DNA of 64,000 nucleotides, taken from NCBI RefSeq assembly GCF_055900595.2, contig NZ_CM148325.1, one strand, 5' to 3'. Below the pieces are notes generated by a model. The model made no database searches and was not told the origin of the DNA. It saw nothing but the letters and a program-made list of their open reading frames with translations. Numbering within the stretch: the stretch's first letter is position 1; each line of letters opens with the position of its first letter. Position numbers and translations under genes: made by a program. Below are positions 19,519 to 19,922 of this stretch, in pieces.

Positions 19519-19801
19519 AAGGATCCGACCTCCGAAATTCGTCGCTAATTATCGGGCTTTTCTTTAAGGGTAGTCATTCGCTCCGCCTGGTGGGCGACAA
19601 AGCGTGCGGTGGATCACGTTTATTAACTTGTCAAAAAATATAACGCACTAATATCAATAGAATTTATAAAAATACGGATTCCGTGTTGTTTTTCATTTTC
19701 AGAACATTCAATCCTGCTCTCGCCGCAATCATGATATGCCATTCCTGCTCTGTATAATAGGCACAGACTATCTTATTGATAGTTTATATTCATGTAATTG
19801 A

Positions 19802-19815
19802 TTGATTCCTATCAA
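19802..19815. promoter_or_regulatory. FNR-binding site upstream of yhjA
   Basis: TTGATTCCTATCAA is an exact match to the FNR consensus TTGAT-N4-ATCAA, about 110 bp upstream of the yhjA ATG; yhjA is known to be FNR- and OxyR-dependent. Confidence 0.6.
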
Positions 19816-19922
19816 AAAGCGTATTTCCCTGTTTTTTATGATGGCTTTGTCTCGCAGAGACGTTTGCAGCATTCTGGAAAATTTTCTGGGTCACAATAAC
19901 TCACCACCGTGAGGGAAGAATA

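Follow-up and report, generated by a model that had tools for sequence, protein, structure and literature searches.

A perfect FNR motif upstream of ccp (yhjA) in Escherichia coli lies in a conserved register with an OxyR-type motif and a −10-like hexamer

The DNA analyzed here is a 64,000-nt stretch of an E. coli chromosome (the window), in which the divergent genes treF and ccp (yhjA) are separated by an intergenic region at positions 19519–19922 and flanked by yhjB and gadA (Table 1). This region is the entire interval of an original prediction that was made from the letters alone, and the gene identities proposed there agree with the TreF model match, with the RefSeq annotation and with published work. 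The stretch 19400–20100 is present in 5,422 of 5,426 complete E. coli genomes, where it is chromosomal every time and annotated with treF and ccp. The AT-richness that had been predicted for the region is reflected in a GC fraction of 0.335 in 19600–19799, compared with roughly 0.5 in the genes on either side. A scan of 19300–20100 against Rfam returned no known RNA family, the one sub-threshold match being to a snoRNA within treF (E = 0.2). The product of ccp is a membrane-anchored tri-haem cytochrome c (quinol) peroxidase that faces the periplasm, and through it H2O2 can be used as a terminal electron acceptor (PMC10301912, PMC8115020, PMC12051229).

Table 1 Coordinates of the genes and of the observed and predicted elements in the window
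Feature	Position	Strand	Description
treF	17869–19518	minus	NCBIfam TreF, 1214.7 bits; RefSeq annotation of identical DNA
OxyR-type site ATAGgcacagaCTATcttattgATAGtttatatTCAT	19757–19793	plus	37 bp; four elements at 11-bp intervals; 14/16 specified bases
FNR binding site TTGATTCCTATCAA	19802–19815	no strand	perfect TTGAT-N4-ATCAA; 10/10 specified bases; centre 19808.5
−10-like hexamer TATGAT	19837–19842	plus	read from sequence; 21 nt downstream of FNR site
Predicted transcription start	19849 (G; or 19850)	plus	7 nt after −10; inferred from geometry
Small hairpin GTCTC-GCA-GAGAC	19849–19861	plus	predicted 5′ end of ccp mRNA; single-sequence folds
Hairpin CTCAC-CACC-GTGAG	19900–19915	plus	overlaps Shine-Dalgarno GAGGG (19911–19915); also flagged as stem by consensus scan
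ccp (yhjA)	19923–21320	plus	465 aa; RefSeq "ccp: cytochrome c peroxidase", annotated in identical DNA

The exact TTGAT-N4-ATCAA palindrome on which the original prediction centred was recovered by a pattern scan of the window, with every specified base in place. Two perfect sites of this kind occur in the 64 kb, compared with 0.16 expected from dinucleotide shuffles, and a count of two was reached in 3 of 100 shuffles. A predicted FNR site at yhjA/treF is listed in Table S6 of Myers et al. 2013 (K-12 position 3667319, TTGATAGGAATCAA, PatSer 14.16, ln p −12.64; PMC3688515). The sequence TTGATAGGAATCAA is the reverse complement of TTGATTCCTATCAA, and the palindrome is the already published FNR site of the E. 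coli ccp promoter.

The Toledano-type consensus for OxyR is ATAGnt-N5-CTAT-N7-ATAGnt-N5-CTAT. Upstream of the FNR site, and separated from its start by 8 bp, is a candidate OxyR site that reads ATAG-N7-CTAT-N7-ATAG-N7-TCAT, which has two mismatches to the pattern ATAG-N7-CTAT-N7-ATAG-N7-CTAT. It is the single match in the window at a threshold of three or fewer mismatches (0.14 expected; at least one match in 11 of 100 shuffles), and on this agreement with the pattern it is assigned as a probable OxyR site. Co-regulation by OxyR had been guessed in the original prediction without a location, and the guess agrees both with published work and with the conserved OxyR-type motif found here. The accompanying suggestion of further A/T-rich palindromic stretches, perhaps of OxyR type, holds for this one specific motif but not for palindromes in the plural, as an inverted-repeat search returned a single pair of at least 10 nt (19772–19782 and 19809–19819).

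In a class II FNR promoter, the FNR site is centred about 41.5 bp (39.5–42.5) upstream of the transcription start and overlaps a poor −35 element. Downstream of the FNR site, the hexamer TATGAT has no recognisable −35, the corresponding position (19814–19819) being AAAAAG, and it was not called as a stand-alone promoter in a consensus sigma-70 scan. With the start placed from this geometry, the FNR site would span −48 to −34, with its centre at −40.5 (+1 = 19849) or −41.5 (+1 = 19850), and the OxyR-type motif would span about −92 to −56, with its centre near −74. The position of the FNR site would then be that of class II geometry, for which both the start and the class II contacts are predicted from the sequence. 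A second candidate promoter, the sigma-70-like ATGATA-16-TATAAT at 19731–19758, was rejected as a conserved ccp promoter, as its −10 is GGTAAT in K-12 and variable among Escherichia. In this strain, it is a 10/12 match that is directed toward ccp and overlaps the first OxyR element, and its −10 carries two substitutions in the strain's lineage (GGTAAT in K-12 to TATAAT).

The conservation of these elements was examined at 41 loci that were retrieved by a Ccp protein scan with one genome per species, one of the loci being without upstream sequence. A paired-motif search that allowed up to four mismatches in the OxyR-type and up to two in the FNR-type motif was run over about 498 kb on both strands. 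In 34 of the 41 ccp loci, the starts of the two motifs are exactly 45 bp apart, and the FNR motif is perfect in 25; an FNR motif with at most two mismatches is found upstream of ccp orthologues in 35 loci. Every pair with the 45-bp spacing lies immediately upstream of ccp and on the ccp strand, with the start codon 86 to 226 bp from the module across the 34 loci. Other offsets gave single matches each in the approximately 498 kb, except for a 22-bp register shift of the same OxyR site. The module thus spaced extends across Enterobacterales, with paired motifs in Escherichia, Citrobacter, Pluralibacter, Providencia, Trabulsiella, Entomohabitans, Hafnia, Enterobacillus, Buttiauxella and Yersinia. 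The sole exception to the fixed spacing is found in Providencia burhodogranariea (L019), where the OxyR element and the start of the FNR motif are 56 bp apart; the additional 11 bp equal one helical turn.

Stacking the upstream regions at the FNR motif gives ATAGG...A..CTAT...A...ATAG.......C..T.....T..TTGAT.....TCAA as the pattern of conserved columns, with no conservation in the flanks. The first three OxyR elements are near-invariant across the genera, and the degenerate fourth reads TCAT in E. coli and CCAT, CAAT or CGAT in the others. A hexamer of the form nAnnAT is present at +35/+36 from the start of the FNR motif in 12 of 14 genus representatives, compared with 0–4 at any other offset. 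The FNR site is conserved in register with the core promoter elements. As ccp has treF for a neighbour only in Escherichia and Citrobacter and the module persists elsewhere, the module belongs to ccp rather than to treF.

The OxyR/FNR module was not found at the second Entomohabitans copy (L026) or at the homologues from Saezia (Burkholderiales), Lachnospiraceae and Chloracidobacterium. The Ccp of Saezia sanguinis, a betaproteobacterium (L028), is 73% identical, and the second Entomohabitans copy is paralogous. The absence of the module from these two suggests horizontal transfer or duplication without the promoter. Two further intergenic blocks are conserved between Escherichia and Citrobacter: AAGCGTGCGGTnGATCACGTTT (19600–19621), which contains a CRP-like CGTGA-N6-GCACG on the treF strand, and CATTTTCAGAACATTCAAT (19694–19712). 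Neither was found upstream of ccp in genera without an adjacent treF, and these blocks may therefore belong to the control of treF.

Within E. coli, aligning the intergenic region of the window with that of K-12 MG1655 gives 404 columns, of which 12 differ (11 substitutions and a 1-bp indel), at window positions 19527, 19554, 19628, 19659, 19676, 19681, 19682, 19748, 19753, 19754, 19767 and 19825. The yhjA promoter of K-12 (Partridge 2007) is the same locus: it agrees with the window in every base of the FNR half-sites, the OxyR tetrads and the −10, position 19767 is an unspecified position within the OxyR span, and the differences are at strain level only, among them GGTAAT where the window has TATAAT (19753–19758). 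Identity of at least 99% to the window in the intergenic region is found in only 17–18 of 5,422 genomes. The 57-nt core 19768–19824 is identical in 3,960 genomes, and the common variant is G19821A, which falls beyond the motifs, six bases past the FNR site in the downstream direction. For the shorter 53-nt core 19768–19820, 5,387 of 5,422 complete E. coli genomes fall in the no-mismatch band, a number that includes at least one shortened alignment, that of strain fS54a, in which an insertion sequence lies within the FNR site.

In fS54a (NZ_CM176577.1; positions 1440–1620 and 2700–2860 of L046), an IS5-family (ISKpn26-like) element is found inside the ccp FNR site at the equivalent of window positions 19809–19812. 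The junction consists of TTGATTCCTAT, the element and CTATCAA, with CTAT duplicated. The insertion puts approximately 1.2 kb between the OxyR site with the left half-site and the core promoter, and it is a predicted natural knockout of this promoter.

The predicted ccp leader of 74 nt contains two hairpins (Table 1) that could affect mRNA stability or translation. At the 5′-terminal hairpin, Citrobacter variants pair with other bases (GTCC/GGAC and GTCTT/AAGAC), and comparable 5′ hairpins are seen in Hafnia, Trabulsiella, Yersinia and an Enterobacteriaceae MAG and are absent from most Providencia. In the hairpin next to the Shine-Dalgarno sequence, the five pairs are kept in 11–12 of 12 Escherichia and Citrobacter sequences, with a variable loop and no covariation. 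RNAalifold applied to the 5′ UTR recovered only this stem, likewise without covariation, the 5′-terminal hairpin being lost through alignment gaps. A terminator-like hairpin at 19671–19687, where three differences between the window and K-12 preserve pairing and seemed compensatory, was rejected as a conserved structure, as the stem is disrupted in both E. albertii and a divergent E. coli.

Regulation of yhjA by FNR and OxyR was reportedly described by Partridge, Poole and Green (2007, Microbiology 153:1499). Three later sources attribute this regulation to Partridge et al. 2007 (PMC10301912, PMC4207228, PMC2690998). Both FNR, under anaerobiosis, and OxyR are recorded by curation as activators of yhjA (PMC4207228), ccp/yhjA is placed among the OxyR-induced genes (PMC10301912, PMC4207228, PMC8115020, PMC12051229), and induction of Ccp by OxyR takes place under hypoxia (PMC8115020, PMC12051229). 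The control of yhjA (ccp) by FNR and OxyR is textbook knowledge, and the anaerobic activation of yhjA through the FNR site that the original prediction had put forward fits both this published regulation and the cross-genus conservation of the motif.

The binding data are divided. In vivo binding of FNR at yhjA and treF was detected by ChIP-qPCR by Lemmens et al. 2009 (PMC2690998). In the ChIP-seq data of Myers et al. 2013, which were collected in anaerobic glucose minimal medium, there is no FNR peak at the yhjA/treF site, and it is counted among 124 "silent" predicted sites (PMC3688515). [quoted passage not shown] In the same work, yhjA has a +O2/−O2 value of 0.4997 in Table S12, which corresponds to about 2-fold higher expression anaerobically in the wild type, and it is not in Table S8, the list of FNR-dependent operons (PMC3688515). 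The original prediction had named a lack of binding in ChIP data as grounds for its rejection; no binding was found in one data set, the ChIP-seq of Myers et al., but ChIP-qPCR was positive. Because FNR was found at both yhjA and treF by ChIP-qPCR, the absence of a peak under a single ChIP-seq condition does not refute function. The missing peak instead points to conditional occupancy by FNR, and it fits a need for co-activation by OxyR, since the ChIP-seq cultures were grown without H2O2 and the co-activator would be inactive.

Taken with the published dependence, the arrangement of elements makes it very probable that the palindrome is the FNR operator of the ccp (yhjA) promoter and one half of a composite FNR/OxyR AND-gate. 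The elements, their geometry and their co-conservation come from the present analysis, and the FNR/OxyR dependence and the function of the enzyme are taken from the literature. In the proposed mechanism, the [4Fe-4S] FNR dimer would bind TTGATTCCTATCAA when oxygen is absent and, from a position approximately 40.5–41.5 bp upstream of the predicted start, would replace the missing −35 and recruit RNA polymerase by class II activation. An OxyR tetramer oxidised by H2O2, on the neighbouring 37-bp four-element site at about −92 to −56, would co-activate from upstream. With both inputs required, the quinol:H2O2 peroxidase would be made only under hypoxia in the presence of H2O2, and its production would coincide with the use of H2O2 as a respiratory electron acceptor. 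Without OxyR activation, H-NS and IHF would cover the AT-rich region and FNR occupancy would be too low for a ChIP-seq peak.

A more tentative extension, doubtful as it stands, is that OxyR and FNR form a rigid, obligatorily cooperative element in which H-NS and IHF keep FNR off the DNA unless oxidised OxyR is bound alongside. The rigid 45-bp spacing and the single +11-bp variant suggest cooperation that depends on the face of the helix. If obligatory cooperativity is true, it would explain how a consensus FNR site can be "silent" in ChIP-seq, and the promoter would be a clean natural model of nucleoid masking that is overcome by a second signal.

The same ChIP-seq result could be read to mean that the palindrome, in spite of its high score as an FNR motif, is physiologically silent under a permanent cover of nucleoid proteins, with ccp driven by OxyR (and something else) alone. 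[quoted passage not shown] It is nonetheless very unlikely: the half-sites are near-invariant and keep a constant spacing to the OxyR site and to the −10 in about 10 genera in which the flanks are randomised, FNR binding by ChIP-qPCR (PMC2690998) and FNR dependence have been published, and the co-activator would have been inactive in ChIP-seq cultures that contained no H2O2. The other "silent" sites of Myers et al. 2013 are, moreover, mostly intragenic and without regulatory evidence, whereas the ccp site is intergenic, in promoter register and deeply conserved, with independent evidence of regulation by FNR.

The FNR site could also serve the divergent treF rather than, or as well as, ccp, as it lies within their shared intergenic region. 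[quoted passage not shown] An assignment to treF is still less probable, however, as 290 bp separate the centre of the site from the start codon of treF, the treF strand has just one promoter-like match (19577–19548), about 250 bp away from that centre, the module accompanies ccp in genera without an adjacent treF, and the orientation-specific partners of the site, the upstream OxyR and the downstream −10, are both directed toward ccp. Binding by another protein of the CRP/FNR family, such as CRP, or a chance palindrome in AT-rich DNA is barely credible: CRP and FNR sites are indeed related 5-N-5 palindromes and the region is AT-rich, but both half-sites here are the exact FNR TTGAT, unlike the GTGA core and N6 spacing of CRP sites, and the deeply conserved site belongs to a class of which about 0.16 are expected per 64 kb.

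As an FNR operator of ccp, the site can be compared with those of known systems. The class II FNR promoters of narG, nirB, ydhY and yfiD have an FNR site near −41.5 and a −35 that is weak or missing; the ccp promoter resembles them in lacking a −35 and in carrying a −10-like hexamer 21 nt downstream of a consensus FNR site. In those promoters, the upstream co-activator is NarL/NarP, IHF or a second FNR, whereas in ccp it is OxyR, and the ccp promoter, unlike them, has no FNR ChIP-seq peak in plain anaerobic medium. With the classical OxyR promoters of katG, ahpC, oxyS and dps it shares four ATAG-type elements at helical-turn spacing. In the latter promoters, OxyR abuts the −35 region; in ccp, its predicted span of about −92 to −56 is one activator-width further upstream, displaced by FNR, which would occupy −48 to −34.

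The practical weight of these results is small, as control of yhjA by FNR and OxyR has been published since 2007. The physiological rationale, respiration of H2O2 under hypoxia, has reportedly been in print since 2017. The present analysis adds the fixed register of the two operators and the −10 across genera, with its single helical-turn variant, and it reconciles regulation by FNR with the missing ChIP-seq peak. The ccp FNR site is a good positive control for the motif-based reading of raw sequence, and the promoter is a convenient test case for a co-activator that conditionally unmasks transcription-factor sites.

The other perfect TTGAT-N4-ATCAA of the window, TTGATTTTTATCAA, is found at 39224–39237 in the divergent region between shuT (chuT) and chuA, in the chu haem-uptake island. 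The site lies upstream of shuT, with 114.5 bp between its centre and the RefSeq start of that gene (39116, minus strand). A Fur-box-like sequence, AATGATAATCAT, lies nearby at about 39150–39165, and GATAATAATTCTCATTATC is found at 39491–39510 on the chuA side of the region. Of 5,426 genomes, 2,236 carry the 63 nt around TTGATTTTTATCAA, 981 of them in identical form, and the motif represents a possible anaerobic (FNR) input into haem uptake.
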